Shown here: positions 6,882-22,831 of the stretch, piece after piece
How positions within the stretch are numbered: the first letter of the stretch is position 1
Layout: the number at the start of each line of letters is the position of its first letter
NCBI GenBank assembly: GCA_030699245.1
Contig: JAUYJX010000036.1
Location: 752-24,751, forward strand
Length of the DNA: 24,000 nt
Direction of reading: 5' to 3'
From: a bacterium
GTDB lineage: Bacteria > Patescibacteriota > Saccharimonadia > CAILAD01 > JAUYJX01
Notes under the pieces: model-generated
What the model saw: only the letters and a program-made list of their open reading frames with translations
What the model was told of the DNA's origin: nothing
The model's database searches: none
Translations under genes and position numbers: made by a program

Positions 6882-6980
6882 TCCTTCGTTAAAACTACGG
6901 AATGGTAAACCATTAAACTTCACACCTTGTGTTTCGCTTAATTAGTAATATTTTGAAGTTTAATGGGAGGGAAAAAGTTA

Positions 6981-7164
6981 CTCCATAGCCCTGTCTGCTC
7001 TTCGAGCCTGTCTGCCGACAGGCAGGTCTGAGCCCTGAGGCACCGCCCTCAGAGTCGAATGACCGACAGGCAGGTTCATGCGAAGGGTAACCCTGACCAC
7101 CCTTCTCCACTAACTGGCTACGGATGGCAGGCCATAGACTCTTGCCCGGAAGTAAGCTATGAGG
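6981..7164 (+). ncRNA. GC-rich structured element of unknown class downstream of tRNA-Pro(CGG) (candidate ncRNA, leader or integration scar)
   Basis: Closing helix ctccatagc(6981-6989)/gctatgagg(7156-7164). Hairpins at 7006-7023, 7035-7052 and 7082-7105. Internal repeats are detailed in the findings entry for 6872..7164. Strand is inferred from colinearity with the tRNA. Confidence 0.45.
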
Positions 7165-7205
7165 ATAAACCAAACAAAATTAATTAAAATTTTCCAAGTT
7201 TTCAA

Positions 7206-7922
7206 ATGCAAATAATCTACATTAGTTTGCTAACAATTTTAGCCAGCACTATTGGTACAGTTACTGGATTTGGTACCTCAACAATTATGGTGCCAGTCTT
7301 ACTATTGTTTTTTCCTTTGCCTCAAACCCTTCTGCTGGTTGGCATTATCCACTTCTTTGGTGATATCTGGAAACTAACTCTCTTTAAGAGAAAGTGGTTA
7401 TGGAAGGTGCTGTTAGGCTTTGGTATACCGGGGGTAATTGCCAGTTTTTTTGGTGCTAAATTGATTTTTAGTTTGCCCGCTAACCTAATTACCAAAATTA
7501 TAGGTGGTATTTTAGTTGCTTACGGTATTTTTATTATTATTAATCCGGTGTTTAAACTAGCCATAAATTATCTGACCTCAATTATTGGCGGGGTAACTTC
7601 GGGGTTTCTAGCTGGTTTTGGCGGAGTTGGTGGTGCACTGCGAGGACTTTTCTTATCTGCTTATGATCTGCCAAAAAGTACATATATATTTACCTCTGGC
7701 GCGATTGCTTTTGCCATAGATTCAACTCGTATAACCACTTATTTCGCCAATGGTACTAGACTGGATAGTCTGCTGACTGTTGGATTGTTAATTTTTATAC
7801 CTGCTTCATTTATGGGTGCCAAGATCGCTCAAAAAATTGTCAGCAAAATTTCTCAACGCCAACTTCGAATTACTATAGCTATCTTTTTACTAATTGTCGG
7901 AGTTAAGCTAATATTTTTTTAG
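7206..7922 (+). CDS. TauE/SafE (DUF81) family membrane transporter
   Basis: 238-aa polytopic membrane ORF. The Gly-rich TM repeats (TVTGFGTSTIMVPVLLLF..., GGVTSGFLAGFGGVGGALRG) are typical of the family. Confidence 0.75.
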   Translation: MQIIYISLLTILASTIGTVTGFGTSTIMVPVLLLFFPLPQTLLLVGIIHFFGDIWKLTLFKRKWLWKVLLGFGIPGVIASFFGAKLIFSLPANLITKIIGGILVAYGIFIIINPVFKLAINYLTSIIGGVTSGFLAGFGGVGGALRGLFLSAYDLPKSTYIFTSGAIAFAIDSTRITTYFANGTRLDSLLTVGLLIFIPASFMGAKIAQKIVSKISQRQLRITIAIFLLIVGVKLIFF

Positions 7923-7925
7923 ACG

Positions 7926-7954
7926 TTGACAGAATAGTAATTTTGGGGTAGAAT
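7926..7954 (+). promoter_or_regulatory. sigma70-type promoter for the GC-rich ORF
   Basis: TTGACA(7926-7931), 17-nt spacer, TAGAAT(7949-7954). Downstream lie AAGGAGG at 8006-8012 and the ATG at 8017. Confidence 0.6.
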
Positions 7955-8016
7955 ATATAAATTCTCTCGGTTATAGCTGAGAGTTGTTTTAATTGACCCA
8001 CTAAAAAGGAGGCATT

Positions 8017-8832
8017 ATGCCGCTGGGTCAGATTGATAACACCAAGATTTCCGTCTCCTTCAGAGGAGAGGAAATCATCCCCGAAGAGAGTGGCTATCTC
8101 GGCCAGCTGGAATCCAAAAACCAGCATAGGCCAGATATACTGGCTCTGGTCGTCACCGTTTCGGATGAAAGCTACCATGGGTTCATGGTGGATGGGCAAA
8201 AGAACGTCAGCCCTTCTCGCGATCTGAACCAGAAGTCTCTCACACCCGGGATTAAGGTGTTCCGCCAGAAGATGCCGATCAAGTTCTTGAGTCACCTTGC
8301 TGTCTGGCACACAGAGTACGCAGAGAACAATTTGCGATTGCTTAAGTTGGAGCTTGACGGAAGTTTCTGCGTCTGGGAGATCGCTATCATCTCCCAAGAC
8401 GGCTGCTTCTTCCTGACGAAGCAGCGGACTTACGAGAGCCGGTGCTATCGGGACGAGTCGGGTCAGCTGGTTTGCCCTGACTTTGAAAAGTGGCCACAAC
8501 TGGTTCATTTCTTGAAGACTCTAGTGGAATCACCCGAGTCTCTCGAAGCTGTTGAGAGCTGGAGTCCCAAACCGGGGATAGATGGCTCAGACCTAGAGCC
8601 TGGAACTGCCAGAGTCATCTGGTGGAACTGCGCCCAGGGACTCGGGGCCATAGCAGCTCCGGAGGGAGCAGCGCGAGTCCACTGGACAGAGTTGCCAATC
8701 GGTGACGAGCTGGCATATCTGTCCAAAGGACAGCTTGTGAGCTACTCGTGCTTCAAGCCACCCGAGAGCACGTGTGGTCGCTCCACTAGCTTCCAACGAG
8801 AAGCAGTGGCGGTTACGCCCCTCGGTGTCTAG
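8017..8832 (+). CDS. GC-rich hypothetical protein with C-terminal cold-shock-like (OB-fold) region
   Basis: 271-aa ORF with a strong SD. The C-terminus GTARVIWWNCAQGLGAI...ARVHW...LSKGQLVSY follows the CSD pattern GxVKWFNxxKGFGFI..VFVHF..GQxV. The N-terminal ~190 aa are unrecognised. Composition is clearly higher in G+C than the flanks. Confidence 0.75.
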   Translation: MPLGQIDNTKISVSFRGEEIIPEESGYLGQLESKNQHRPDILALVVTVSDESYHGFMVDGQKNVSPSRDLNQKSLTPGIKVFRQKMPIKFLSHLAVWHTEYAENNLRLLKLELDGSFCVWEIAIISQDGCFFLTKQRTYESRCYRDESGQLVCPDFEKWPQLVHFLKTLVESPESLEAVESWSPKPGIDGSDLEPGTARVIWWNCAQGLGAIAAPEGAARVHWTELPIGDELAYLSKGQLVSYSCFKPPESTCGRSTSFQREAVAVTPLGV

Positions 8833-8853
8833 CATCAGCCTAGACACCACCCA

Positions 8854-8880
8854 ATACCCCGCGTTCGCGGGGTATTTCAT
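8854..8880 (+). terminator. rho-independent terminator of the GC-rich ORF
   Basis: 9-bp stem ataccccgc(8854-8862)/gcggggtat(8867-8875), loop gttc, then a T-rich tail. Confidence 0.8.
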
Positions 8881-8942
8881 TTAATTATTTTTTTATCACC
8901 AAAAACACGAGTGATAGCTGGTCTGTGAATTGCTGATAATCC

Positions 8943-8971
8943 TTGAGTAAATTAGGCTTATGGTATAAAAT
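8943..8971 (+). promoter_or_regulatory. candidate promoter for the tRNA-Gly/tRNA-Arg pair
   Basis: TTGAGT(8943-8948), 17 nt, TAAAAT(8966-8971). Alternatively TGgTATAAA as an extended -10. Lies about 55 nt upstream of tRNA-Gly. Confidence 0.4.
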
Positions 8972-9027
8972 TGATAGTTTCTATCGCTTAAGTAAAAGAT
9001 TAGTTTACTTTATAATTATTAAAGCAT

Positions 9028-9102
9028 GCGGGTGTTGTATAGTGGCTATTACGTCAGCCTTCCAAGCTGAAGACGGCGGTTCAATTCCGCTCACCCGCTC
9101 CA
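9028..9102 (+). tRNA. tRNA-Gly (anticodon TCC)
   Basis: 75-nt cloverleaf. Acceptor gcgggtg/cacccgc, anticodon loop cttccaa, T-loop ttcaatt, CCA encoded. Confidence 0.88.
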
Positions 9103-9180
9103 GTCCCCGTAGCTCAGCTTGGATAGAGCAACTGCCTTCTAAGCAGTAGGTCGCAGGTTCGAATCCTGCCGGGGACGCCA
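9103..9180 (+). tRNA. tRNA-Arg (anticodon TCT)
   Basis: 78-nt cloverleaf. Acceptor gtccccg/cggggac, anticodon loop cttctaa, CCA encoded. Starts on the nucleotide immediately after the CCA of tRNA-Gly. Confidence 0.9.
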
Positions 9181-9332
9181 CGAAAAATTCCTTTCTCAAA
9201 AACGAATTACATTCTGTTATTTGAAAAGTGTCATATTCGTGGCACAGCCATTGAAAGGAGAACTACTTGTGATAGTTGGAGTACAATAGCATCAGCTATC
9301 GTACAAAGACCTAAGCAATAGTTTGACGACGA

Positions 9333-9410
9333 GGTGGGTGTAGCTCAGCTGGTTAGAGCAACGGGTTGTGGTCCCGTAGGTCGTGGGTTCGAATCCCATC
9401 ACTCACCCCA
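9333..9410 (+). tRNA. tRNA-His (anticodon GTG) with encoded G-1
   Basis: Acceptor gtgggtg/cactcac, an extra 5' G (9333) opposite discriminator C, anticodon loop ttgtggt, CCA encoded. Confidence 0.9.
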
Positions 9411-9519
9411 TTAAACTTCGCTACTTTGCTTAAAGGCGGGTTTAGCGAAGAAATAAAATAAATGAAGGGATGAGAAGTTTATCCGCCAATCGGCGGGAAT
9501 CCCATCACTCACCCCATTA
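9391..9519 (+). repeat. exact 23-bp direct repeat of the tRNA-His 3' end bracketing an 83-bp hairpin-containing insert
   Basis: gaatcccatcactcaccccatta occurs at 9391-9413 and 9497-9519. Between the copies lie the hairpins cttcgcta(9416-9423)/tagcgaag(9443-9450) and ccgcc(9483-9487)/ggcgg(9492-9496). Confidence 0.85.
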
Positions 9520-9528
9520 GAAAATAAG

Positions 9529-10428
9529 ATGATTATTTTTACTTTCCCCAACTATAAATTTATGCTGCCGGAAATTTTAAATAAAATACCTGGTTTAAAA
9601 TCTGGTGGTTTCTCTATTAATCGTTTTTCAAATCAAGAAATTTATGTAAGTTTAAATTCAGAGGTAGCAAACCAAGATTGTCTGATACTGGGTTCTATCT
9701 CTCCTCCGGAGCAGAATTTATTTTCACTTCTGCTTTTAGCTGATACTTTAAAAAAACAGGAAGCTTTAAGTACTACAGTCTGTTTGCCCTATTTAAGCTA
9801 CGGTAGGGCCGATAGAGATGAATACAACAAAAGTTTAACCATTAAATGGATTGGACGGCTCTTCAAAGCTTCATCGGTTGACAAATTAATAACTTTTGAA
9901 GCCCATAGTCAGCTAGATCAAAAGCTTTTCCCGATCCCTTTAATTTCCATATCAACAAGCGAAATTTTTGCCAAGCAAATTATAAAATTATCGCTTGAAA
10001 AATATAGCCTGGTATCTCCCGATGAAGGGGCTATAGATTTATGTCAAGTAACTGCTAATTTAATAAATTCAGCTCAACCAATAGCTTACTTTAAGAAAAA
10101 AAGAGATAAAAAGGGAATCATTCATTCGACACTAATCGGAAAAGTCAGACCTCAAGTTATTATTTTAGATGACATATTAGACACCGGAGCTACACTGCTA
10201 TCTTGTACCAGTCAATTAGCGAAGGTTGGTGTAAATAACATTGTTATCATGGTCACACATGGCTTATTTACCGGAAGTAAGTGGAAAAAATTATGGCAAA
10301 ATAATGTTACTGAAATTTACTCAACGGATACTACCCAGCCCAGAAAAGATTTAGATTTGAAAAAAATTAAAATTTTACCGATGGCTTCTTTTATTGCAGA
10401 GAAGTTAAAATATTATTTAAACTTATAA
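9529..10428 (+). CDS. prs: ribose-phosphate pyrophosphokinase (PRPP synthetase) family
   Basis: 299-aa ORF. CLPYLSYGRADR matches the Prs motif PYxxYxRQDR. ILDDILDTGATL is a PRPP-binding loop. Confidence 0.8.
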   Translation: MIIFTFPNYKFMLPEILNKIPGLKSGGFSINRFSNQEIYVSLNSEVANQDCLILGSISPPEQNLFSLLLLADTLKKQEALSTTVCLPYLSYGRADRDEYNKSLTIKWIGRLFKASSVDKLITFEAHSQLDQKLFPIPLISISTSEIFAKQIIKLSLEKYSLVSPDEGAIDLCQVTANLINSAQPIAYFKKKRDKKGIIHSTLIGKVRPQVIILDDILDTGATLLSCTSQLAKVGVNNIVIMVTHGLFTGSKWKKLWQNNVTEIYSTDTTQPRKDLDLKKIKILPMASFIAEKLKYYLNL

Positions 10429-10431
10429 ACT

Positions 10432-11070
10432 ATGCACGAACTTCAGTCAAAACTAGTCAATATATCGGCTGATGATGTTAATCTAGAAGGTTCTCTAAAT
10501 ATTCCTGAACGTTCTAAGTCAATTGTTTTATTTGCTCATGGTAGTGGTAGTAGCAGATTTAGCCCCAGAAATAATTATGTAGCCAGTGTGTTGCAAAAAT
10601 CGGGACTCGCTACACTACTGATTGATTTGCTAACCGAGCAGGAAGATCAGGTTTATGAAACTAGATTTGATATAGATTTATTAACTAAACGGCTAATCAT
10701 AGCTACTAAATGGCTAAGAAATAATCCCCCATCAAAAGATTTATCAATTGGTTACTTTGGAGCAAGTACTGGCGCTGCAGCAGCTCTTCAAGCAGCTGCT
10801 AAGCTAGGGGCAGAAATCAAAGCAATAGTTTCCAGAGGCGGTAGGCCTGATTTGGCTAAGGAAAATCTAAAAAAAGTTCAAGCTCCTACTTTACTATTAG
10901 TCGGTGGTAATGATACTGAAGTGATTAAGCTAAATCAAATAGCGCTAGATGAATTAAAAACTACTTGTGATTTAGTAATAGTTCCTGGTGCCACTCACCT
11001 ATTCGAGGAACCAGGAACTTTAGAAAAAGTTGCCCAGATATCTGCCAAGTGGTTTAAAAAATACTTATAA
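10432..11070 (+). CDS. dienelactone hydrolase-like alpha/beta hydrolase
   Basis: 212-aa ORF starting 3 nt after the prs stop. Contains VLFAHGSGSSRFSPRNNYVA...LLIDLLT and the nucleophile-elbow-like GASTG. Confidence 0.75.
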   Translation: MHELQSKLVNISADDVNLEGSLNIPERSKSIVLFAHGSGSSRFSPRNNYVASVLQKSGLATLLIDLLTEQEDQVYETRFDIDLLTKRLIIATKWLRNNPPSKDLSIGYFGASTGAAAALQAAAKLGAEIKAIVSRGGRPDLAKENLKKVQAPTLLLVGGNDTEVIKLNQIALDELKTTCDLVIVPGATHLFEEPGTLEKVAQISAKWFKKYL

Positions 11071-11093
11071 CTCTAGAGTAAATTTTATTAGTA

Positions 11094-12062
11094 TCAGTAG
11101 CCGAGGGTTTTATTTTGAGAATTAATCAGCCAGTGATTAGTCTTATTATCAAAAATCAGAGTATAGACCATGGTATCTGTGTATTGTGAGGAATTCGGCT
11201 GGGTTGCGTCCCGGTACTTATACAAAATATTTACCTGAACCTCATATTTATCCCCTAGTCTATTAGTCCCAACCAGCCTAAAACTGACCGGATAAGTATA
11301 CAACCTAGCATCAGGGGTAATAGTACTAAAATTAAATTCATTGATAAAAGCATCTGTCATATATCGCTTCATTTTCTCTACATCTCCGGAGATAAAGCCG
11401 TCCATAAATTTATTTATATTCGATTCCACTTCTGCCCTGTCACTAGCTTCTTTTTGCATCTGACGTTCTTTTTGAGTCTTCTCGGCTTCTTCTTTGGCTT
11501 TTTGTTCATCCATTTTGTCTTTAGCAGATTTTAGATAATCAGCAAGGTTGAAAATATCAGAGGATATATTTTCTTTGAGATAACTGATACTATTTTTTAC
11601 TTCATCGCTAGATTGACGTGCTTGAGCTGAAAGTAAACTGAGCTTAGTAAAGTCCTCCTCGTCTAAAATTTTTATATCATCACTCATACTAGCGGCTTGT
11701 GAGCTGTAATTGCTAAATTTTTCTAAAAAATTTCTGTATATAAAAAGTGATTTTTTATCATTCAATAGTGTTGAGATATTTCCTGCATTGAATTTTTCAT
11801 CTCTAATTAAACTGTCTAAATTATGGATTTCCCTTGACAAGTCATTAACATTTTGAGGGTTTAAATCCTTTTTCGCTAGAATAACTTTATCGCTACGTGA
11901 AGCTAGTGAATGCCAGCTGGACTTGATAAATTCTTTACTGTAAGAGCTTCTTTGTAAATACCAGCCATAAATCCCTAGCGTTGCAAGGATTATCAGTGTG
12001 ACAAGAAAAATAATCCAGAATTTCTTGGTTTTATAAAATTTGGGTTTGGGATCTTGTTCCAT
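11094..12062 (-). CDS. membrane-anchored coiled-coil protein of unknown function
   Basis: 322-aa ORF with an N-terminal TM helix (FWIIFLVTLIILATLGIYGWY), a Lys/Glu-rich central segment and a globular C-terminus. Confidence 0.65.
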   Translation of the reverse strand: MEQDPKPKFYKTKKFWIIFLVTLIILATLGIYGWYLQRSSYSKEFIKSSWHSLASRSDKVILAKKDLNPQNVNDLSREIHNLDSLIRDEKFNAGNISTLLNDKKSLFIYRNFLEKFSNYSSQAASMSDDIKILDEEDFTKLSLLSAQARQSSDEVKNSISYLKENISSDIFNLADYLKSAKDKMDEQKAKEEAEKTQKERQMQKEASDRAEVESNINKFMDGFISGDVEKMKRYMTDAFINEFNFSTITPDARLYTYPVSFRLVGTNRLGDKYEVQVNILYKYRDATQPNSSQYTDTMVYTLIFDNKTNHWLINSQNKTLGY

Positions 12063-12107
12063 AAATAATAAGACTATTTTATGATAGTTTTAAGATTCAA
12101 GCTAGCA

Positions 12108-12145
12108 GAAAAATAAAAAAACCGCTTTTTTATAGCGCGGTTTCA
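12108..12145 (-). terminator. rho-independent terminator after hup
   Basis: On the minus strand: aaaccgc(12137-12143 complement)/gcggttt(12119-12125 complement) stem followed by a U-run (tttttttatttttc). Confidence 0.7.
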
Positions 12146-12149
12146 CAGG

Positions 12150-12425
12150 TTAGCTGCGAACAACTTCTTTTAGTCTTTTGCCAGCACGAAATCTCGGCAT
12201 AGCCATTGCCGGGATTTTAATTTCTTTGCCTGTTTGCGGATCAACTCCTCTACGTGCTTTGCGGGAAGAAAGATCAAATGTGCCAAAACCAGTAATGGAT
12301 ACTTTTTCGCCAGCTTTAACAGTTTTTTCAATAATTCTAACTAACTTGGTCAGAATTAGATCTGCCTGCTTTTTGGTGATATTTATTTCTTCAGCTAAGG
12401 TATCAATTAATTTTTGCTTGGTCAT
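12150..12425 (-). CDS. hup: HU family DNA-binding protein
   Basis: 91 aa. Contains ...ITGFGTFDLSSRKARRGVDPQTGKEIKIPAMAMPRFRAGKRLKE, the canonical HU/IHF arm and signature. Confidence 0.92.
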   Translation of the reverse strand: MTKQKLIDTLAEEINITKKQADLILTKLVRIIEKTVKAGEKVSITGFGTFDLSSRKARRGVDPQTGKEIKIPAMAMPRFRAGKRLKEVVRS

Positions 12426-12430
12426 TTTTT

Positions 12431-12513
12431 CCTAATTCGCACTTTGAGCGAATTACCCTGAATGAAATCGAAGGGCTTTTAAAATATTATAGTGCAATAT
12501 TATTTATAACCAA
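12431..12513 (-). promoter_or_regulatory. hup promoter plus structured ~50-nt 5' leader
   Basis: Minus strand: TTGGTT(12508-12513), 16 nt, TATAAT(12486-12491). The leader holds a ccct/aggg hairpin (12456-12475) and a perfect 7-bp hairpin aattcgc/gcgaatt (12434-12454) just 5' of AGGA and the ATG. Confidence 0.5.
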
Positions 12514-12532
12514 TTATCAGTTTTTTAGCAAA

Positions 12533-13324
12533 CTAAATATCGACAAGGCGAATAATTTGCTCAATGGACTTGGCTTTTCCTTTTGTGCTGATATTTATTA
12601 AAACTGCACAAAACTGGCAGGGGCCGCTAGTGGTAATTTCATGACGAGCTGGCAGCTGGTTGAGCCAGCGGCTAATAATAATTTCTTTCTTAACCCCCAA
12701 CACCGAATCGGCTGGTCCCACCATACCAACATCAGTAATAATAGCTGTGCCGCCTGGCAAAATCCTTGCATCAGCGGTTGGCACATGTGTGTGGTCGCCT
12801 ATTACCGCACTAACTTTACTATCAAGATAATAACCGACCGCTACTTTTTCGGAGGTTGAATCGCCATGAAAATTAACTAAGCTAGCAGACAATTTTTCAT
12901 TTTTATTTTCCTCTAGGATCTCGTCTACTTTTTTTAACGGATTTTCCAGCTGTGGTCCATTAAATGTAATGCCCATCAAATTTATGACTAGTATTTTGCC
13001 AAAGCTAGAGCTGGCAATAGCCCAGCCTCTTCCCGGCGTGTTTTCTGGATAATTAGCCGGTCTGATTACCGGGATTTTAGGGTCATTCAAATATGGATAA
13101 AATTCTTTTTTTTTAAAACTGTGATTACCGCCAGTGAAAAAATCTATTCCCACTTCTCTCATCTCTTCGACTGCCTTGATCGTTAAACCATTGCCTGTCG
13201 ACATATTTTCGCTTTGAGCGATTACAAAATCAATATTTTTTTCTTTTATTAAGTCTGGCAAAACTTTTTGAACAGTAGCCCTACCAATCCGCGCAACTAT
13301 ATCACCGATGTACAAAATCTTCAT
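12533..13324 (-). CDS. ymdB: YmdB-like metallophosphoesterase (2',3'-cyclic-nucleotide phosphodiesterase family, TIGR00282-type)
   Basis: 263 aa. Starts MKILYIGDIVARIGR...FVIAQSENMSTGNGLT. Lies immediately downstream of rny (TAATG overlap), the same arrangement as the Bacillus rny-ymdB operon. Confidence 0.85.
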   Translation of the reverse strand: MKILYIGDIVARIGRATVQKVLPDLIKEKNIDFVIAQSENMSTGNGLTIKAVEEMREVGIDFFTGGNHSFKKKEFYPYLNDPKIPVIRPANYPENTPGRGWAIASSSFGKILVINLMGITFNGPQLENPLKKVDEILEENKNEKLSASLVNFHGDSTSEKVAVGYYLDSKVSAVIGDHTHVPTADARILPGGTAIITDVGMVGPADSVLGVKKEIIISRWLNQLPARHEITTSGPCQFCAVLINISTKGKAKSIEQIIRLVDI

Positions 13325-14841: not shown

Positions 14842-15072
14842 ATTCCACCTCTTTCTATGGTCTCTTGTGTAATTAAACCTTAATATAAGGACTAGATTAA
14901 TTTTTAAAAACAGCTTTGAGCCTTATTACACCAGTCTAGTGAAAATTGCTTCATTTAATCTGAAAATTGAGCTTCGGTGCGGCTTAACTAAACAAAAAAC
15001 TTCAATGTTAATTATTAAAAACCTAGTACTTTTATTAAAAACCTTTTGGTTTGCTGGGTCAAGCCAAGAGTT

Positions 15073-15462
15073 TTAATTTGGCTTGGTGATATTAGGTTCT
15101 CTGTCGTAGTCAGGTATTACCCATTCATTTGACTTGGCATTTTTAAAACCATGCGGAATCTGGGATAACCAATCTTTGCCTTTGGTCTTAAAAACTTTGA
15201 TATCTAAACTATAAGCTAAGGCATTAGACAGCGATGTACCAATGCGCAGTCCGGTAAAAGAGCCTTCACCGCTAAACACACAAACACCGCTTAGATTCTT
15301 AAAGTCCAGACTATTTTTTTTAAGCAAATTTTTGATTTTCGGAAGTAGCGTATCGGCTAATTGTCGGCCGGCTTTCCATTGATATTTATCAATAACCATT
15401 CCTGATTCTTTGAGTATATATAACTCGGCTTCATTTGCGTCAGTTTTTATCGCTAAGATCAT
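15073..15462 (-). CDS. tsaB: tRNA t6A biosynthesis protein TsaB (short, N-terminal domain only)
   Basis: 129 aa. Contains ILAIKTD...VFSGEGSFTGLRIGTSLSNALAYSL, the YeaZ/TsaB N-domain pattern. Overlaps the tsaE 3' end by 23 nt. Confidence 0.75.
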   Translation of the reverse strand: MILAIKTDANEAELYILKESGMVIDKYQWKAGRQLADTLLPKIKNLLKKNSLDFKNLSGVCVFSGEGSFTGLRIGTSLSNALAYSLDIKVFKTKGKDWLSQIPHGFKNAKSNEWVIPDYDREPNITKPN

Positions 15463-15943
15463 AGTTAATTTTATCTAAAACTTTTTTACTTAGATCCCCT
15501 ATTGCAGAAATTTCAATATCTCGGATATTTTCATCAACAAAATGTAAATCGATAATGAGTCTATCGTTTTTTAATCTGTGGTGAAAATTTTTTGCCCATT
15601 CCACAACTACTATACTTTTGCCATAATTTAAAACTTCTTCCAATTCATTCAATATGATTTTATCATTTTCCAGCCTATAAAGGTCAAAGTGTTCCAGTGA
15701 ATTACCGCCTGGCAGTTGATAACTTCTTTGAATGTTAAAAGTCGGAGAAGTGATTGTTTTAGTGATTCCCAAGCCTTTAGCTAGTCCCTTTATGGCTGTG
15801 GTTTTTCCGCCTCCTAAATCGCCAACAAATTCAATTAATTGTCCAGGTCTAATATATTTAGCGATTGCTGCGCCAAGCGCTAAGCTTTCTTCTGATGATG
15901 TGGTAGTAACTTTTAATTTCTGGCCGGTATTCATAGATTCCAT
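15440..15943 (-). CDS. tsaE: tRNA t6A biosynthesis ATPase TsaE
   Basis: Walker A GDLGGGKTT, SPTFNI and HFDLYRL motifs. The ORF opens at 15964; ATGs at 15943 or 15934 give the usual ~37 aa before the P-loop. Start is uncertain. Confidence 0.8.
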   Translation of the reverse strand: MESMNTGQKLKVTTTSSEESLALGAAIAKYIRPGQLIEFVGDLGGGKTTAIKGLAKGLGITKTITSPTFNIQRSYQLPGGNSLEHFDLYRLENDKIILNELEEVLNYGKSIVVVEWAKNFHHRLKNDRLIIDLHFVDENIRDIEISAIGDLSKKVLDKINYDLSDKN

Positions 15944-17165
15944 ACCCAATAGTACCTGCGCCAAGCGCTATTAGCAACCAGTTCCACAAATTGCGGTTTT
16001 TAATTCCATCATTATTTGAAAAAGAGGAGTCATTTCCTTTTTTACCGATACTAGCTATTTTTGGTTTTTTGGACTTTTTCTCAGAAGCAATTTTACTCTT
16101 TTTGGAACCAATTGATTTGGCTTTCTTTTTTGAACTGGTTTTAGCTGAATTTGCACTTTCTTCACCTTTAACATAGAGTGCGCTATTAGTGGTGCCTGGA
16201 GTCGGTGCAACTGTCCACCCCCAGCCTTGGGTAGTTAAACCCCAGCTAAGTCCTTCTTCTGCTTTACCGTAATCAGCAGTTTGATCAACTGCCTGTCCTA
16301 AGGGATTAAATAGACTAATTATATCGCCATCGTTATTTAGACTAATACTGGTGTCTTTGGACGAAATAACTAAATATAGGTTTGCGCCAATTATTTGGTC
16401 AGCGAAAGCATAAATATTATTTGAATTATCGCGCAAACTCCAGCTTTTTAAATTCACATCGAAATTATTGGGGTTATAAATTTCGATAAATTCATCATTG
16501 CTATCAGTCTGTGGACTGGCAGGATCAGGAAAGATTTCAGTAATCATTAAATTTGGGTAGGTATTATTATTGCTAAGCTGGTCTTCATTTTCATTATTTG
16601 GATTAAATTGAGGTGGTTTATCTGGTGTTGGTAAAGATGAGATTTCAAAATCATTAAAATTATTAACAGTGTTTTGCAAGCCCAAACCATTAGTGTTATA
16701 AATGCGCTGCAAACTTTCACCAGCTATAGGTGCCAGTGCAGACTGAATCAAAGGCTTATCACCGTTACCCCAAGCCAGCTGATCCGCTATATTGCCCTTG
16801 GTATCAGTAATTCTGATATTGCCGCCTGTTTGTGACAGTCCGGAGGACATCTTAGTATCGGCTTCAACTAAGGTTGCAGCTAAATAATAACTATTAGGAG
16901 CTAGCACTTTGCCATTTTCGATAACTGCTTTCTTATACCAAGTTGTGCCAGTTGCTGATTTATAGCTAATTTGCCATCCGCTTAAATCAATGTCTGAACC
17001 GCTAGAATTAAATAATTCAATAAACTCATCACTAGCGTTAGTGGAGCTACCCATCGATACTTCACTAAATAAAATACCAGACTCTGCAGCATAAGCAATT
17101 TTTCCAGGTAAAAAATTTAAGAAAATCGCTATTAATAATCCAAAAAAACTTAATCTAGAGTACAT
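15858..17165 (-). CDS. surface protein with two lamin-tail (LTD) domains, Lys-rich linker and C-terminal TM anchor
   Basis: 435 aa with a signal peptide. LTD signatures SDEFIELFNSSGSDIDLSGWQISY and NDEFIEIYNPNNFDVNLKSWSLRD. KKKAKSIGSKKSKIASEKKSKKPK linker, then the TM helix WNWLLIALGAGTIGYGIY. Confidence 0.8.
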   Translation of the reverse strand: MYSRLSFFGLLIAIFLNFLPGKIAYAAESGILFSEVSMGSSTNASDEFIELFNSSGSDIDLSGWQISYKSATGTTWYKKAVIENGKVLAPNSYYLAATLVEADTKMSSGLSQTGGNIRITDTKGNIADQLAWGNGDKPLIQSALAPIAGESLQRIYNTNGLGLQNTVNNFNDFEISSLPTPDKPPQFNPNNENEDQLSNNNTYPNLMITEIFPDPASPQTDSNDEFIEIYNPNNFDVNLKSWSLRDNSNNIYAFADQIIGANLYLVISSKDTSISLNNDGDIISLFNPLGQAVDQTADYGKAEEGLSWGLTTQGWGWTVAPTPGTTNSALYVKGEESANSAKTSSKKKAKSIGSKKSKIASEKKSKKPKIASIGKKGNDSSFSNNDGIKNRNLWNWLLIALGAGTIGYGIYEYRPEIKSYYHIIRRKLSAWRSNR

Positions 17166-17240
17166 AACTAGATATTTTACAAATTCAAAAATTGAAAGTA
17201 AAGCATAAGTAATTCTGTTTAGTGCTAAGCGCTTATACTA

Positions 17241-17270
17241 TTGACCAGATAAGCATAGCGGCTATATAAT
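17241..17270 (+). promoter_or_regulatory. candidate promoter of the pilin-like gene
   Basis: TTGACC(17241-17246), then TATATA/TATAAT (17263-17270) at a 16-18 nt spacing, about 50 nt before the ATG at 17318. Confidence 0.45.
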
Positions 17271-17317
17271 CAATTTATCTTTAGAAGTATTAGGAATAAT
17301 GAGAGGCGGTAGAAGAT

Positions 17318-17731
17318 ATGTTAAACAAACTTAAAAGCATGCAAGGCCAAAAAGGTTTCACGCTAATAGAGATAATTATAGTAATTGTGATTATTGGTAT
17401 TTTGGCGGCAATTTTGATTCCGAGTTTGATTTCGGGTCCTACAAAAGCTCGTGACTCAGAGAGAAAGGGTGACTTGCGCACCTTAAAGATTAAATTGGAA
17501 GAATATTTTCAGGATAACAGTGTCTACCCTGCAACATTATCTGATTTGACTGGCGGTAATCCACCTTACATTAAGACCGTACCCGTTGATCCAAAAAACA
17601 AGCAAAATTATAACTATACACCTGCTCCAGCCGGTGGCCCCTACACTAGCTATACATTAACAGCCACCCTGGAAAACAAGAATGATAAAGAAGCGCCCAA
17701 CGGTGCCTTTACCGTAGATTCTTCTAACTAA
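17318..17731 (+). CDS. type IV pilin / type II pseudopilin-like protein with prepilin N-terminal methylation motif
   Basis: 137 aa. QKGFTLIEIIIVIVIIGILAAI is the class III signal peptide plus hydrophobic helix. The following ARDSERKGDL is GspG/PilA-like. Confidence 0.85.
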   Translation: MLNKLKSMQGQKGFTLIEIIIVIVIIGILAAILIPSLISGPTKARDSERKGDLRTLKIKLEEYFQDNSVYPATLSDLTGGNPPYIKTVPVDPKNKQNYNYTPAPAGGPYTSYTLTATLENKNDKEAPNGAFTVDSSN

Positions 17732-17754
17732 TATCCGTCTCAAGACAAGGATTG

Positions 17755-18312
17755 CTAACCAGTTAGTTTGCCTAGAGGGTTTGTTTCGGGGTTATCTTTG
17801 CGAAAGTCTTTATGGAGTTTAATGATTACTTGCTCAATCTCATAGGGATGAGGTACAAAATCTAGATGGAAATTTTCTCTCTCACCTGCTGTCTGAACAA
17901 TAATTGTACCAAACTGCAAAATAGTTTGTATGGGACCATTAACATTAATGCTTACATCCTGAATGTTTGCCAGTGATAAGGTAGCTACATTGCGCCTAAA
18001 TAAGCCGAGTTGATCCATATCTATAATATTTTCATTGGTCATTACGACTCTGTTTGAATGCCAAATCCAAATAACTCCAAAAGTGAAAATGCCTATTAAT
18101 GCTAGAAACGCAAAAATTGCTAATATTGCTAATGCTGAATTTGTACTGCTACCAAGGCTAGGCTGATTAAGGGCTATATAATAAACGCCAAACAGACAAA
18201 GCAGAGTTAATGCAATACTCACAAAGATAAAAGGAGCAATGGACATCCAATGTTTGTATACAGTTTTGACTATTCTTTCGTTTTCGCCTAAAGCAAAGTT
18301 GTTTGTCCCCAT
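17755..18312 (-). CDS. membrane protein with bacterial PH (bPH_2, YdbS/YdbT-like) domain
   Basis: 185 aa. Two TM helices, then RRNVATLSLANIQDVSINVNGPIQTILQFGTIIVQTAG, typical of bPH_2. Confidence 0.65.
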   Translation of the reverse strand: MGTNNFALGENERIVKTVYKHWMSIAPFIFVSIALTLLCLFGVYYIALNQPSLGSSTNSALAILAIFAFLALIGIFTFGVIWIWHSNRVVMTNENIIDMDQLGLFRRNVATLSLANIQDVSINVNGPIQTILQFGTIIVQTAGERENFHLDFVPHPYEIEQVIIKLHKDFRKDNPETNPLGKLTG

Positions 18313-18339
18313 AAACCAAGTTTAGCTGAAAAAAAATAT

Positions 18340-19368
18340 TTATAAAAGTTTTTGCTGGTCTTTTTTGGATTTTTTGATATCTAAGTGTTTATAGGCTTTT
18401 TCTGTAACTTTTCTCCCTCTATGAGTTCGTTCCAAAAAACCAATCTGAATTAAATAAGGTTCATAGACATCTTCTATTGTTTGACGCTCCTCGTTAGCTG
18501 CAGCTGCTATCGCAGCTACGCCCACTGGACCGCCTTTATAATTCTTGATGATAGTTAATAAGATATGCCGATCACTAGAATCAAGACCTATTTCGTCAAC
18601 TTCTAAAAGCTTTAGTGAACTATCAACCTGACTAAGATTAATTTTTCCATCTCCGTGAACTTGCGCATAATCACGAACTCTCTTGAGTAAACGATTGGCA
18701 ATTCTGGGAGTTAATCTTGAGCGCTTTGAAAGTTCTGCCAGGGCATTTTTTTCTGCTTGCAAATTCATGATTCTTGCTGAACGCTTGAGAATCTCCTCTA
18801 TTTCATCTACTAGGTAATAATTAAGCCGATGAATAATGCCAAAACGATCACGAAAAGGCCCTGATAATGCACCGAACCGGGTAGTTGCACCAATTATCGT
18901 AAATTTGGGCAGATCGAGTCTCAAGCTTTGAGCCGAAGGACCTTTACCCAGCATTATATCCAGCACATAATCCTCCATTGCCGGATATAAAATCTCTTCA
19001 ACATTTCTGGGAAGCCGGTGAATTTCATCAATAAACAGAACGTCACCATCGTTCATATTGGTCAGAATTGAAGCCAAATCACCAGCTCGTTCTATTGCCG
19101 GGCCACTGGTTACTTTGACAGCTCGTTTCATTTCATTGGCAATCACATTAGCAAGTGTTGTTTTACCAAGTCCTGGTGGTCCGTACAAAAGGACATGATC
19201 AAGTGATTCTTTACGATTTTTGGCAGCTCTAATTGCTAAATCAACGCTTTTCTTGACCTGTTTTTGTCCGATATATTCGCTAAATTTTCGAGGGCGTAAT
19301 GTTTCTTCAAACTTAATATCAACCTTTTCCTCATCTTTTTTATTTGTATCGGTTTTTCGTTCAATCAT
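18340..19368 (-). CDS. ruvB: Holliday junction branch migration helicase RuvB
   Basis: 342 aa. Walker [12 protein letters not shown], Walker [10 protein letters not shown], and a RuvB winged-helix C-terminus. Confidence 0.95.
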
Positions 19369-19919
19369 TTTGATAGTTGCTTTAATGCTAGTTTAACTTT
19401 TTCATTTACATTAATATCATCTGGCAAGTTCTTGACTGCTTCATTAGCTTGCATGTTGTTATAACCAAGGGTAATTAATGCTTGATAGGCAGGGTCTTTA
19501 GAGTTGTCAGCTTTTGCGCTCAAATCAATTTTACCTTTTAATTCTATGATAATTCTCTGAGCAGTTTTGGCACCCACGCCCAAAATATTTTTGAACACTT
19601 CGACTTTGCCGGATAAGGCTGCTTTCTGCAGATTTTCCACACTATCGGTGGAAAGTATTGTCATAGCCATCTTCGGTCCTACTCCGCTGATTGCTACTAG
19701 CTGGCCGTAGAAGTTTTTCTGCTGCTCATCACTAAAACCAAATAAACTATAGTGATCTTCACGGATATATTCAGCTATGAGCAAAGCAGTTTTTTGACCA
19801 ACTTGACTGTTAACTAACAGCTGATCAGTAACAAATATTTCATAGCCAATGCCGTTCACTTCAACAATTAGTCCGTTTGCAGACTTGCCGGTTACTATCC
19901 CTTTGAGACTCGCAATCAT
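19365..19919 (-). CDS. ruvA: Holliday junction DNA-binding protein RuvA
   Basis: 184 aa. Contains MIASLKG...GIGYEI...LFGF...ISGVGPKMA (HhH motifs). 4-nt overlap with ruvB. Confidence 0.92.
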
Positions 19920-19944
19920 AGATTAATTCTAACAGATAGTTGCT

Positions 19945-20445
19945 TTACGGTAAATGTTCGTTTTTTATCAATCGATTCTTAACTGCTGCACTATGGCAAA
20001 TTGCGATTGCCAGGGCATCAGCGGCATCGTCCGGTTTAGGGATTAATTTAAGGTTTAGAATAGTTTTTACCATCTGTTGAATTTGTTTTTTGGTCGCTTG
20101 CCCATATCCGGTAACTGCCTGTTTGACCTGCAATGGCGTGTATTCGGCAATATTCAAATCAGCTTTCTGTGCAGCAAGTAAAACTACTCCCCTTGCCTGC
20201 CCTACACTAATGGCAGTTTTGGTATTGGCAGCAAAAAACAATTGCTCAATCGCTATCCAATCCGGTTTTGATGACTTAATAATTTTCTCTAGATCATCAA
20301 AAATAATTTTTAGACGCTGTGGCATTGGTAGTTTATGATTAGTTGTAATAACCCCATGATCAATCATTTTTAATTTCACATCTTTAAATTCAATTACACC
20401 AAAGCCAGTCGTCGCCGTACCAGGATCTATACCGAGAATTACCAT
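19945..20445 (-). CDS. ruvC: crossover junction endodeoxyribonuclease RuvC
   Basis: 166 aa. Contains ILGIDPGTATTGFGVI...QVKQAVTGYGQATKKQ...DAADALAIAICH. Confidence 0.93.
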   Translation of the reverse strand: MVILGIDPGTATTGFGVIEFKDVKLKMIDHGVITTNHKLPMPQRLKIIFDDLEKIIKSSKPDWIAIEQLFFAANTKTAISVGQARGVVLLAAQKADLNIAEYTPLQVKQAVTGYGQATKKQIQQMVKTILNLKLIPKPDDAADALAIAICHSAAVKNRLIKNEHLP

Positions 20446-21182
20446 TACGCAAGTTCTTTTAAGATATTATCATCAATATCGAAATTGGCATAAACATTCA
20501 CTACATCATCATTGTCTTCCAGACTATTGATTAGCTTGAGTAAACTATTTGCTTTTAGTGAATCGGTAATCTTTATAGTTTGAGTTGGCTTCATATCCAA
20601 TTCAGCTGATTCTATCTTATCTTTACCCAGCACACTTTTAACTTTTTCTAGTTCATTTAGTTCGGTATAAATAATTAGTTGATCTGAGCTGTCATCAATA
20701 TCGCTTGCGCCTGCTTCGATTGCCTTGAGGCTCATTTCATCTTTACTTAGCCTCGGCTTTAGGGTGATCATACCTTTTTGTTCAAAAAGATATGCAACTG
20801 ATCCGCTTCCACTTAAATTCCCGCCATATTTAGAAAAAATTGATCTGATTTCAGAAGCTGTGCGGTTGCGGTTGTCACTCAGAGCCTTGACCATAATCGC
20901 AACGCCCATCGGACCATAGCCTTCATAATTCAGCTCTTCCAAACTGGAACCATCGCCACTGCCTGAACCTCTGGCAATAGATCGATCAATATTTACTGAA
21001 GGCATATTTGCTTGTTTGGCTTTTTGGATAGCTAAACGCAAACGGAAATTCATACCTGGATCACTGCCATCTTTGGCTGATAGCGCAATTTCATTAGCTA
21101 ATTTAGTAAAAAGCTTACCTCGCCGGGCATCAGTCACTGCTTTTTGATGTTTAATTGAATGCCACTTAGAATGTCCGCTCAT
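20445..21182 (-). CDS. yebC: YebC/PmpR family DNA-binding transcriptional regulator
   Basis: 245 aa. MSGHSKWHSIKHQKAVTDARRGKLFTKL is the canonical N-terminus. Located upstream of ruvCAB, as in many bacteria. Confidence 0.93.
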   Translation of the reverse strand: MSGHSKWHSIKHQKAVTDARRGKLFTKLANEIALSAKDGSDPGMNFRLRLAIQKAKQANMPSVNIDRSIARGSGSGDGSSLEELNYEGYGPMGVAIMVKALSDNRNRTASEIRSIFSKYGGNLSGSGSVAYLFEQKGMITLKPRLSKDEMSLKAIEAGASDIDDSSDQLIIYTELNELEKVKSVLGKDKIESAELDMKPTQTIKITDSLKANSLLKLINSLEDNDDVVNVYANFDIDDNILKELA

Positions 21183-21223
21183 ATCTTTTTGTTCCTTTAT
21201 CTATTATATATATTTGCTAGTTT

Positions 21224-21269
21224 AAAAAAAGGCTGGAAATCCCCGTCTGCCTTGGCTTCAAGCCTTTTT
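21224..21269 (-). terminator. probable terminator overlapping the comEC stop
   Basis: Minus strand: aaaaaggct...agccttttt outer pairing encloses a GC-rich segment and is followed by a U7 run. Confidence 0.45.
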
Positions 21270-22670
21270 AGAATCCAAGAATTCCTGCTTATTCCTAATT
21301 AAGGCAAAGAGAAAGAGCACAGAATACATTAAAACTACCGAATAGATAGAGACGGCAGAAATTTTGACCGCTGAAATCTTAAAACTTGCAAGGTATTTGA
21401 TCAAATCCAAGAGTAACTCAATGAACTTAGCTAGCGGTAAAAAGATCAGTGAAACAATATATGCTGATAAAAGTATGCCTAGTATACCGGCCAAAAAACC
21501 AAACAGCATCAGTACGGGGATTAATGGCATTATTAAGATGTTAGCTAAAGGTGAAATAATAGAGACTTGCCCGAATTTATAAGCTATCAATGGAAAAGTT
21601 GCCAGTTGAGCTGAGAGTGAAACAGCAACAATTTCTTTTAAGAGATTGGGCATTCTTTTCGGTAAAAATGCTTTAATCTTAGGTGAAAATAGCACAATAC
21701 CACTTAGAGCTAAGAAGGAAAGCTGCCAGCCAAGATCGCTGATCAAATAGTTGGGATTATAAGCACAAGTAATAATTGCTGTTAGGGAAACTGCAGTTAT
21801 AACTTTGATATCCCGGCCGTAAAATCTGACAATCATAAAAATCACCGACATAATTCCAGCCCTAACAATTGAAGCTGACCCACCGGTAAGCACCACAAAA
21901 CCAGCAATTAGCCAAATTGAAGTGATCAGACTCCCCCATCTCCAGTGACCCTTGAGCCTCCTGTCTAAAAAGCCAATAATAATCGTCAGGTTATAACCAG
22001 AAACTGCTACAATATGTGACAAACCGCTGATAGATAAGTAATCCTGCAGATTTTTCGGTAATGAAGAACGTGCGCCAATTAATATACCAATCATAAATGA
22101 ACTAGCTGGCTCAGGTAAGGCTCTTTTCACCCCAGTAACAAATAGGGATTTAATTTTAACTAGGATTGGTTGATCGGGATTAATTATTTCAATTTTAGCA
22201 AAACTGATTTGGCTTTCAGCTTTACCACGAGTTGGCTTGATTTTCCCTCTGACAATAATTTTCTGTCCATCTTTTAGATTGGGAAAAAGTGTTTTCACCT
22301 TTACTTCTCCACCAATCTTTTTGCCGTCAATTGATAAATTATCCAATATCAGTACATTATTAAAATACTGGTCTTTATAGACATCGCCCTTGATATTACC
22401 GGTAACTGATTGTTTCTGGTCTTGATAGCCGCTGATATTATTTTGACTACTAAAGTATACAAAAGTCTGATAGCGAAAGATTCCGATGCAGATTGCGAGT
22501 AATAAAAACAGCACATAACCGATCTTGGACTTGACGAAAAACAGGCTGGTGATAATTAAAATTATTGGGATTAACCATAAAAAATTTAAATCAAATAAAA
22601 AATTAGCCGAAAATATAATACCGGCTAAAAAACCAATAGTTATTAAAAGTATCTGTAGATTTCTTTTCAT
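21258..22670 (-). CDS. comEC: ComEC/Rec2 family DNA internalisation channel (no metallo-beta-lactamase domain)
   Basis: 470-aa polytopic ORF with an OB-like DUF4131-type N-terminal region (GNIKGDV...KVKTLFPN...IIVRGKIKPTRG). Competence-domain pattern SGLSHIVAVSGYNLTII. Confidence 0.8.
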   Translation of the reverse strand: MKRNLQILLITIGFLAGIIFSANFLFDLNFLWLIPIILIITSLFFVKSKIGYVLFLLLAICIGIFRYQTFVYFSSQNNISGYQDQKQSVTGNIKGDVYKDQYFNNVLILDNLSIDGKKIGGEVKVKTLFPNLKDGQKIIVRGKIKPTRGKAESQISFAKIEIINPDQPILVKIKSLFVTGVKRALPEPASSFMIGILIGARSSLPKNLQDYLSISGLSHIVAVSGYNLTIIIGFLDRRLKGHWRWGSLITSIWLIAGFVVLTGGSASIVRAGIMSVIFMIVRFYGRDIKVITAVSLTAIITCAYNPNYLISDLGWQLSFLALSGIVLFSPKIKAFLPKRMPNLLKEIVAVSLSAQLATFPLIAYKFGQVSIISPLANILIMPLIPVLMLFGFLAGILGILLSAYIVSLIFLPLAKFIELLLDLIKYLASFKISAVKISAVSIYSVVLMYSVLFLFALIRNKQEFLDSKKA

Positions 22671-22831
22671 GAGGGCAATAGGTTACCCTCTTAAAAGCAT
22701 TATGAGCCCCTCGACCCATTCGACTTTTGCTCAGGGTCGCCTTGAGCGAAGTCGAAAGACGACTATACTCGGGGCAAATTTAAATCGTATGTCCTTCGAC
22801 TTTGCTCAGGACAATCCGTCAGCTGATGGAT
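22671..22831 (-). repeat. GC-rich hairpin cluster between tRNA-Lys(TTT) and comEC
   Basis: Long imperfect hairpin 22719-22756. Repeated ttcgac(t)tttgctcagg at 22719-22735 and 22795-22810. Hairpin caatcc/ggattg at 22812-22833. Terminal hairpin gaggg/ccctc (22671-22690) abuts the comEC ATG. Confidence 0.6.

Follow-up and report, generated by a model that had tools for sequence, protein, structure and literature searches.

Probable short GC-rich insertions and duplicated tRNA ends beside three tRNA genes of a Saccharibacteria genome

Integrative elements reportedly leave duplicated attachment (att) sites at tRNA genes, with sublocations in the T-loop and the anticodon loop (Reiter et al. 1989; Williams 2002). 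Cis-mobilizable elements (CIMEs) possess att sites without recombination genes. Three enlarged spacers downstream of tRNA genes are compared here with such systems; they lie in a 24-kb stretch of DNA (contig JAUYJX010000036.1; the whole stretch is called the window), assigned to Saccharibacteria (TM7) by the relatives of its RNase Y, and separate tRNA-Pro(CGG) from a TauE-family transporter gene, tRNA-His from prs and tRNA-Lys(TTT) from comEC. We lean towards the view that these spacers are DNA-level insertion scars, i.e. small duplicative inserts of hairpin-unit DNA at or into tRNA genes, and not a new RNA class. They would then be internal spacers of the co-transcription units tRNA-Pro-CGG/TauE, tRNA-His/prs and tRNA-Lys-TTT/comEC, enlarged by GC-rich insertions. 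The duplicated segment reaches from the T-loop or the D-loop as far as the end of the gene, and much of the inserted DNA is made up of an imperfect palindrome of about 20-30 nucleotides (nt), present in both orientations, in which two stem arms enclose TGAGC, a short loop or an inner hairpin, and GTCGAA.

These loci resemble the att duplications of prophages, integrative and conjugative elements and genomic islands in having a same-strand repeat from the T-loop to CCA, the tRNA being rebuilt on the gene-proximal side and its original end displaced downstream. Relatives likewise show empty sites, and the inserts in them supply the hairpin or terminator that immediately follows the tRNA. The repeat is exact over 23 bp at tRNA-His, degenerate (9+10 nt) at tRNA-Pro-CGG and absent downstream of tRNA-Lys; empty sites were found for the His insert (locus L189) and for elements of relatives (L023 vs L011, L003 vs L004). 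Unlike att duplications, the inserts are 35-200 bp long without integrase or cargo, one repeat is a copy of a tRNA 5' end cut at the D-loop, and repeat lengths vary. Moreover, related cores occur at different tRNA species in one genome, where a core-specific integrase would need re-targeting.

At the tRNA-His/prs junction three features were delimited:

9391..9413, plus strand: copy 1 of an exact 23-nt direct repeat (GAATCCCATCACTCACCCCATTA), from the 3' half of the tRNA-His T-loop through CCA plus 3 nt
9414..9496, plus strand: insert of 83 nt, with a hairpin (9416-9450), a purine-rich strand and the hairpin CCGCCAATCGGCGG (9483-9496)
9497..9519, plus strand: copy 2 of the tRNA-His 3' end, 9 nt before the prs start codon (9529)

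In L189, whose prs is 70% identical, the order is GAATCCCATCACTCACCCCATTA-AAAAAACT-ATGATTATTTTT, with tRNA-His ending in CCATTA and 8 nt to the prs start, whereas in the window tRNA-His is followed by 83 extra nt, the second exact 23-nt copy, 9 nt and then ATGATTATTTTT as in L189. Because of this empty site, the His "element" is taken as an insertion between two direct-repeat copies, each of which starts in the T-loop and extends 3 nt beyond CCA. The window's spacer is also missing downstream of tRNA-His in L001-L038, and the second copy of the tRNA-His 3' end is present in an independent Logan assembly (L190). The duplicated end keeps the native junction between the tRNA end and prs. The insert folds better than its shuffles (z=-3.4), with GGGAUGAG paired to the 3' copy around a small hairpin; no terminator-like site was detected in 9411-9528 and no promoter consensus in the spacer. 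A T-box finds no Rfam match in the window, and the tRNA-end copy is same-sense and not complementary to the acceptor end. The prs start lies 8-9 nt past the tRNA-His 3' end in both loci (window 9519-9531; L189 40-57), without a Shine-Dalgarno-like sequence. A tRNA-His-prs co-transcript is suggested, from which tRNA 3' processing could yield a nearly leaderless prs mRNA.

The region around tRNA-Lys(TTT) contains insert-like DNA on both sides of the gene:

22671..22690, minus strand: comEC leader hairpin GAGGG-TAACCTATTG-CCCTC, abutting the ATG
22710..22817, minus strand: three hairpin-unit copies, forward at 22787-22817(-), inverted at 22734-22764(+) and forward at 22710-22742(-)
22832..22908, minus strand: tRNA-Lys(TTT) gene (ARAGORN; Rfam)
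22909..23024, minus strand: 116-bp unit upstream of tRNA-Lys-TTT, consisting of a 103-nt insert (61% GC) and a 13-bp copy of the tRNA 5' end
23044..23072, minus strand: promoter-like TTGACT-17-TAAAAT upstream of the tRNA-Lys/comEC unit

Loci L182-L185 (ComEC 57% identical) have the same order as the window, RimK-tRNA-comEC-yebC-ruvCAB. Their tRNA-Lys-comEC spacer is AT-rich and 51 nt long, compared with 105 AT-rich nt in L186 and 161 nt in the window. It ends in GAGGGTGATCATTTTTCCCTC-ATG, that of the window in GAGGGTAACCTATTGCCCTC-ATG, and L182 (2980-3003) holds GAGGGTGATCATTTTTCCCTCATG at the comEC start, i.e. the same stem with another loop and without the rest of the spacer. Being common to L182, the terminal hairpin of the window is a comEC leader feature and no part of any tRNA element; it is probably a Shine-Dalgarno sequence held in a hairpin beside the start codon. 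The remaining ~140 nt are lineage-specific, and their GC-rich units are absent from L182 and L186. The first two units pair into one long hairpin (fold z=-4.7). Within this spacer Rfam returned nothing relevant at E<=10, no promoter consensus was present, and the sole terminator-like site (22719-22702) is weak and has a poor tail.

Upstream of the gene, the 13-bp copy GGGCCCGTAGCTC at 23012-23024 matches the tRNA 5' end at 22896-22908 and is followed by a third, degenerate tandem copy, CCGCCGTCGCTC. The 116-bp unit is absent in L182 and L186 and is placed between the promoter-like site and tRNA-Lys; a similar TTGAC(T/C)...TAAA(A/T)T precedes tRNA-Lys in these two loci.

The spacer after tRNA-Pro(CGG) is the longest of the three:

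6806..6881, plus strand: tRNA-Pro(CGG) gene with encoded CCA (ARAGORN; Rfam tRNA 66.4 bits)
6882..7205, plus strand: tRNA-Pro-CGG to TauE spacer, 324 nt, 46% GC, a composite of hairpins and repeats
6910..6966, plus strand: hairpin with a 13-bp stem, CCATTAAACTTCA (6910-6922) paired with TGAAGTTTAATGG (6954-6966)
7015..7075, plus strand: 13-bp direct repeat CCGACAGGCAGGT (7015-7027 and 7063-7075) around a 35-nt variant of the hairpin unit
7070..7099, plus strand: degenerate copy of the tRNA-Pro-CGG 3' end, GCAGGTTCA (= 6854-6862) and ACCCTGACCA (= 6872-6881)

The degenerate copy lies 218 nt downstream of the tRNA; its first part corresponds to the 5' strand of the T-stem with the start of the loop, and its second to the last 10 nt of the tRNA. 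This terminal 10-mer was recovered in 9 of 20000 shuffles, and jointly with the upstream GCAGGTT in 0 of 20000. The unit variant reads GGTC-TGAGC-[CTGAGG..CCTCAG]-A-GTCGAA-T-GACC, an inner hairpin replacing the loop, and the hairpin at 6910-6966 includes a 12-mer common to the tRNA-His junction. The spacer folds with z=-2.7 against shuffles, has no Rfam match at E<=10 and shows no promoter or terminator consensus within 6882-7205. RNase P RNA or another housekeeping RNA, prompted by a P4-like GGGAGGGAAAAAGTTACTCCATAG, was rejected: RNase P, SRP, 6S and tmRNA gave no match in this interval even at E<=10. An independent Logan contig break at 7004-7024 was considered as a polymorphism and discarded, as the contigs on either side share an overlap and match the window at 100% identity; it is most likely a graph break at a palindrome. 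An open reading frame (ORF) of 86 aa (6913-7173, minus strand) lies over the GC-rich spacer without a family match and is probably a spurious product of the insert.

Eight tRNA genes were annotated in the window (ARAGORN), and at the gathering threshold Rfam recovered tRNAs only. Copies of the unit and of the tRNA-end repeats were counted within these 24 kb of the genome. When the terminal k-mers of all eight tRNAs were searched, just two tRNAs had their 3' end repeated downstream, His over 20 nt (+3) and Pro-CGG over 10 nt. Lys-TTT alone had its 5' end repeated upstream, over 13 nt, and no other match exceeded 5 nt. Four of the 20 intergenic regions are GC outliers (41-51%, vs 25-37% elsewhere), namely the Pro, His and Lys spacers and the region upstream of tRNA-Lys, and all four touch a tRNA. 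Since tRNA-flanking spacers make up 60% of the intergenic DNA of the window, tRNA adjacency alone is not significant. The mechanistic link to tRNA appears to be the duplicated tRNA termini, which an earlier sequence-only reading of the window missed; the tRNA-Lys 5' duplication lies outside the element which that reading had proposed. Comparison with orthologous loci showed that the putative insertions are absent from orthologous sites and that at least three are bounded by direct repeats of 13-23 bp. As the repeat is the tRNA's own terminal segment (His, Lys upstream and, in degenerate form, Pro), each event would have cut into the tRNA gene yet left the tRNA intact.

Given the tRNA-to-coding-sequence gaps of 8-51 nt in relatives, prs and comEC would most simply be co-transcribed with the tRNAs. 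They appear to need read-through from the tRNA promoter, so that the inserts would not be efficient terminators and would have to tolerate read-through. In this respect the spacers resemble the 3' external transcribed spacers or terminators of tRNAs, with hairpins directly after the tRNA and co-transcription; unlike these, the three spacers of the window lack a U-tract, and thus the GC stem plus U-tract of an intrinsic terminator, the downstream genes appear read-through-dependent, and the spacers are not conserved.

The recurring unit is about 20 nt long, has the general form stem-TGAGC-N-GTCGAA-stem and reads GTCC-TGAGC-AAA-GTCGAA-GGAC in the Lys spacer. A covariance model, R1, was built from 36 unit copies of other loci; the sequences had been chosen for stems of at least 4 pairs, so that the covariation in it is inflated. 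R1 recovered the three Lys copies with E=7e-7, 4e-3 and 5e-3. Degenerate copies ranked 5th (His spacer, inverted), 7th (hup leader) and 10th (Pro spacer) among ~4800 window positions. The second of these stands apart from the three spacers:

12450..12480, plus strand: degenerate hairpin unit in the ymdB-hup spacer (R1 E=0.35; unit scan z=4.1)

It had been proposed as a weaker relative of the tRNA-linked motifs and is missing from the same spacer in three relatives (L001, L002, L038).

The unit core, between complementary flanks that vary in sequence, abounds in Chloroflexi loci and in high-GC contigs from a viral collection, where inverted pairs of it are frequent. In other Saccharibacteria, R1 gave 2 weak hits over 790 kb. 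A general tRNA linkage of the unit was rejected, as 0 of 124 copies in viral-collection loci of other phyla lie within 400 nt of a tRNA. The unit thus appears to be a short palindromic repeat of a cross-phylum type that is common in other, mostly high-GC, bacteria. It shares with repetitive extragenic palindromic (REP) sequences and miniature inverted-repeat transposable elements (MITEs) a short imperfect palindrome, a conserved core, a variable stem, several copies, both orientations and an intergenic position. REP sequences and bacterial interspersed mosaic elements (BIMEs), Rickettsia palindromic elements (RPEs) and Neisseria Correia elements are likewise GC-rich imperfect palindromes of 20-30 nt, intergenic among co-transcribed genes, in both orientations and in clusters, with variable stems around a conserved core. 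The unit differs from them in its core, TGAGC-N2-5-GTCGAA, in a family that spans phyla and not one genus, and in that no RAYT was seen. To MITEs and CIMEs the inserts are similar in being short, non-coding, repeat-bounded and polymorphic for presence, and the inverted units of the Lys spacer resemble terminal inverted repeats. Unlike in these systems, no cognate transposase or integrase was found, and at 13-23 bp the target duplications exceed those of known DDE transposons in both length and variability; the repeats around the inserts of the window measure 13, 13 and 23 bp, and no transposase is encoded in it. Rfam holds no family for the unit, and literature searches on its sequence, on its pseudo-peptide signatures and on tRNA-linked repeats in bacteria of the Candidate Phyla Radiation (CPR) gave nothing relevant. 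A hammerhead or a K-turn-like motif, considered for the tandem G.A potential of UGA...GAA, is speculative: the unit does not agree with the hammerhead core, and no Rfam family was recovered for it.

The sequence-only reading had taken the three spacers for one modular family with colinear motifs. All positions and strands that it quoted are exact, hairpin arms included: CCCTGAG at 7033 and 22730-22736(-), AGTCGAATG at 7053 and 22717-22725(-), AGGGTAACC at 7084 and 22681-22689(-), and the 12-mer CCATTAAACTTC at 6910 (Pro) and 9408 (His). The order tRNA, spacer, coding sequence (TauE, prs, ComEC) is borne out by Pfam. A single colinear family did not emerge from the comparisons, in which the His-Lys similarity was null, cross-matches were zero and one Pro-Lys motif fell into the comEC leader; formal alignment against shuffles came close to non-significance for the family as proposed. 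In Smith-Waterman alignments against dinucleotide shuffles, z was 0.7-3.0 for Pro-Lys (depending on the scoring), 2.5-3.0 for Pro-His and ~0 for His-Lys, and reverse-complement controls scored about equally. BLAST gave no cross-match between the spacers at E<=1, and against 55 related loci nothing but the duplicated tRNA-His 3' segment, which matched tRNA-His genes. In a rank test across the whole window, Pro 7001-7110 and the Lys 3' module each had the other as its best match, correctly oriented (z=4.3-4.4). A GC-rich region antisense to a tRNA scores as high as this pair, and GC composition therefore contributes to the pairing. In the same test, the His region ranked first for Pro 6910-6990 (z=3.5), non-reciprocally.

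The third Pro-Lys motif, AGGGTAACC, is probably coincidental, since its Lys copy lies in the hairpin at the comEC start and its Pro copy in a hairpin around the tRNA-Pro 3'-end copy. The strict three-motif pattern was searched in 241 million metagenome records and matched twice. The two matches appear fortuitous, as they represent one sequence in two samples, with both gaps maximal and without hairpin or tRNA; no further copies were recovered. The orthologous loci L189, L182 and L186 have short AT-rich spacers or none, so that the three spacers are not conserved, and a further site proposed at 15033-15062 found no support. What stands of the claim is that a short palindromic repeat recurs, as the covariance model indicates, though not as a long modular element, and that unusual spacers occur at exactly these three tRNAs, though the unit is not confined to tRNA flanks elsewhere. 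The possibility that each spacer is a decayed full tRNA copy was rejected as well, only His being significant (z=7.7, driven by the 23-mer; Pro-CGG z=3.1; Lys z=-0.5); non-cognate tRNAs reached z=2.7 against the Pro-CGG spacer.

Elements that end in tRNA 3' copies were found in related Saccharibacteria. A same-strand copy of the last 17 nt occurs downstream of 12 tRNAs (Pro-TGG, Arg-TCT, Lys-CTT, Gly and His), in 11 cases at 90-265 nt and in one at 1043 nt, with 0 upstream or antisense; repeat lengths are 12-40 bp. Between orthologous flanks, a 193-bp element at a 19-bp repeat is present in L011 (15389-15581) and cleanly missing from L023, and L004 (16528-16689) and L003 carry a filled and an exactly empty allele at tRNA-Lys-CTT. 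The filled-allele elements after tRNA-Pro-TGG and tRNA-Lys-CTT measure 160-195 bp and have tRNA 3'-end repeats of 15-19 bp. The relatives' elements open with a terminator-like hairpin; a second, small hairpin, by eye a GC hairpin in most of them, lies near their end, within a few nt of the tRNA copy. Downstream of tRNA-Pro-TGG, three elements (L026, 11555-11712; L034, 11678-11830; L019, 20521-20760) are alike in a cloverleaf-like fold; it includes two hairpins that covary, and CCAGUGG forms the loop of one of them. In L003, L004 and L002, a core GGTTCGG..GAACGAGGAGCGCAG-hairpin-GAGCACCGCAGG-AGAAGGCGTTAGCC follows different tRNAs (Arg-TCT, Pro-TGG) in one genome; this core motif pair is also present in the viral contigs L179 and L180, and the internal motifs of the relatives' elements were found in three viral contigs only, without tRNA. 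No Rfam family covers these elements. Homology of the window spacers to them was rejected, as BLAST and two covariance models gave no match.

Further arrangements were seen in the same loci. In L026 a second element, ending in a tRNA-Pro-CGG 3' end, is nested. L038 (4687-5822) has a 1-kb insert, encoding a 230-aa protein, between tRNA-His and a chimeric pseudo-tRNA in which a tRNA-Arg-TCT-like 5' part is fused to the last 33 nt of tRNA-His. L006 (14061-14311) shows a plain 175-bp tandem duplication that starts inside tRNA-Gly and comprises 40 nt of the tRNA 3' part with the downstream flank. In L179, a type I hammerhead ribozyme (6149-6201, minus strand; Rfam 39 bits) scored above the gathering score.

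Under the insertion-scar reading, the inserts would be footprints of non-autonomous REP/MITE-like or mini-integrative DNA that inserted duplicatively at or beside tRNA genes. One candidate mechanism is integrase-type site-specific recombination at the tRNA end, which would fit the T-loop-to-CCA repeats and the empty sites, without a recombinase; others are a MITE/REP-like element with long target duplications, and template switching or duplicative, homology-anchored illegitimate recombination at hairpin-prone, highly transcribed tRNA DNA. In a compact genome, only events that rebuilt the tRNA and kept the junction to the downstream gene would survive, and at the RNA level the inserts would be carried as a hairpin-rich leader or trailer. 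Several points weigh against this reading. No integrase, att-type recombinase, transposase or RAYT gene was found among 30 of the larger ORFs of the window (Pfam), and the inserts themselves are too short for a recombinase gene; no autonomous parent or donor element was matched in phage or plasmid collections; no repeat flanks the Lys downstream insert; and no orthologous Pro-CGG/TauE junction was found in the data. A single defined transposition mechanism is not demonstrated, as repeat lengths and insert sequences differ. In addition, ten pairs are doubly substituted in the fold of L026, L034 and L019, whose 5' purine strand GGGGGAGGAGG closes a helix with the tRNA 3' copy; the His insert of the window folds analogously, and such covarying folds may fit an RNA-level function as well as selfish DNA.

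These folds bring up the main alternative, namely that the spacers are a tRNA-linked structured RNA, i.e. a co-transcribed tRNA-like module (hairpin, purine strand, hairpin, tRNA 3' copy) that would act as RNase P/Z punctuation freeing the mRNA, or as a decoy or regulator, its repeats mimicking the acceptor end. Besides the covariation and the pairing of GGGAUGAG with the 3' copy, it would account for spacers that fold better than shuffles (z=-2.7 to -4.7) and for the preserved tRNA-end/prs junction. We nevertheless consider it quite unlikely: the spacers are not kept in L189, L182 or L186, curated covariance models gave no match, conservation at orthologous positions was not seen across L189, L182-L186 and the regions downstream of tRNA-His in L001-L038, and neither sequence nor covariance models relate the window spacers to the relatives' elements. 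Furthermore, units occur in both orientations within one transcript, and the filled and empty alleles of close genomes show the module to be dispensable. A somewhat less improbable, though still unlikely, account is that the inserts are non-mobile filler, produced by replication template-switching or by homology-anchored illegitimate recombination of imported DNA with tRNA genes as break or anchor sites, the repeats being by-products of re-annealing upstream of the break. Repeat lengths that vary (13-23 bp here, 12-40 bp in relatives), duplications that are 5' or 3' depending on the site, the third degenerate copy CCGCCGTCGCTC upstream of tRNA-Lys, the plain duplication in L006, heterogeneous inserts and a GC-rich composition foreign to a genome of 37% GC all favour it, as do the competence and recombination genes of the window (ComEC, RuvABC) in organisms that carry ComEC, pilins and RuvABC. 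However, the same unit recurs in several inserts and related cores sit at different tRNAs in L003 and L004, which suggests a propagating sequence rather than random filler, and no donor sequence was found (BLAST; phage and plasmid collections).

Pure chance, i.e. unrelated spacers whose common 7-12-mers are coincidences between GC-rich palindromic sequences beside tRNAs, would explain the null His-Lys score, the modest Pro-Lys and Pro-His scores (z=2-3) with similar reverse-complement controls, the lack of BLAST cross-matches, the 60% tRNA-flanking share of intergenic DNA and the motif accounted for by the comEC leader. It is given very little credence, as three unit copies are significant under the covariance model, degenerate His, Pro and hup copies fall in the window-wide top 10, Pro and Lys are reciprocal best matches, and tRNA-terminus duplications occur at exactly these three tRNAs. 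More speculative, and in our judgement doubtful, is the idea that Saccharibacteria harbour undescribed miniature tRNA-like elements of ~80-280 bp in the T-loop and occasionally the D-loop; the His insert, and maybe also those at Pro-CGG and upstream of tRNA-Lys, would then be reduced forms of them. Such elements may consist of a hairpin after the tRNA, a cloverleaf-like body and a 5' purine strand that pairs with the tRNA 3' copy, the tRNA being regenerated; they could depend on mobilisation in trans, as non-autonomous integrative elements, or be small RNA genes of tRNA origin.

If the spacers are insertion scars, the finding is an ordinary one, as palindromic inserts and tRNA-end duplications are both of known kinds. 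Its interest lies in the setting, an episymbiont genome of ~1 Mb that has tRNA-mRNA operons and whose tRNAs are single-copy. Foreign DNA appears to enter it mainly at tRNA genes, and only those inserts persist which restore the tRNA and the junction to an essential gene. The miniature tRNA-like elements of the related genomes are the part most worth attention: these 80-280-bp elements, with filled and empty alleles and covarying hairpins in a dozen genomes, are not in Rfam, and no description of them was found. Should they form a coherent class, they would be a new miniature type of tRNA-targeting element and a practical marker of genome flux in CPR bacteria. They would also call for caution in annotation, since they give rise to pseudo-tRNA ends and to spurious ORFs of high GC, of which 6913-7173(-) is an example.

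The window as a whole has 37% GC and encodes RNase Y, YmdB, HU, TsaB/E, RuvABC, YebC, ComEC, RimK, Prs and the TauE-family transporter (Pfam); its RNase Y shares 74-83% identity with that of the nearest species representatives. Logan contigs of run SRR13727534, an independent assembly, cover 4424-20428 at 100% identity, and the features in this interval are therefore not artefacts of a single assembler. The TauE gene (7206-7922, plus strand) adjoins an ORF of 271 aa (8017-8832, plus strand) without Pfam or PHROG match, with 55% GC and 65% GC at third codon positions (GC3) in a genome of 37% GC. Horizontal acquisition is possible for the 2.1 kb from tRNA-Pro-CGG to tRNA-Gly. Among TauE homologues, the closest share only 62-63% identity, and the one locus inspected (P0008) has a non-CPR gene context. 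Upstream of a TauE homologue with non-CPR-type neighbours in L187 (2770-2850), a second widespread type of palindromic repeat was seen, GGTCATTGCGAGCGAAGCGAAGCAATC with an inverted partner. Finally, between the window and L003 or L004, the segment with tRNA-Arg-TCG, tRNA-Lys-CTT and tRNA-Pro-TGG (window 4376-6041; L003 16001-17638) differs in its orientation to the Gly-Arg-His cluster; this inversion points to rearrangement at tRNA genes.

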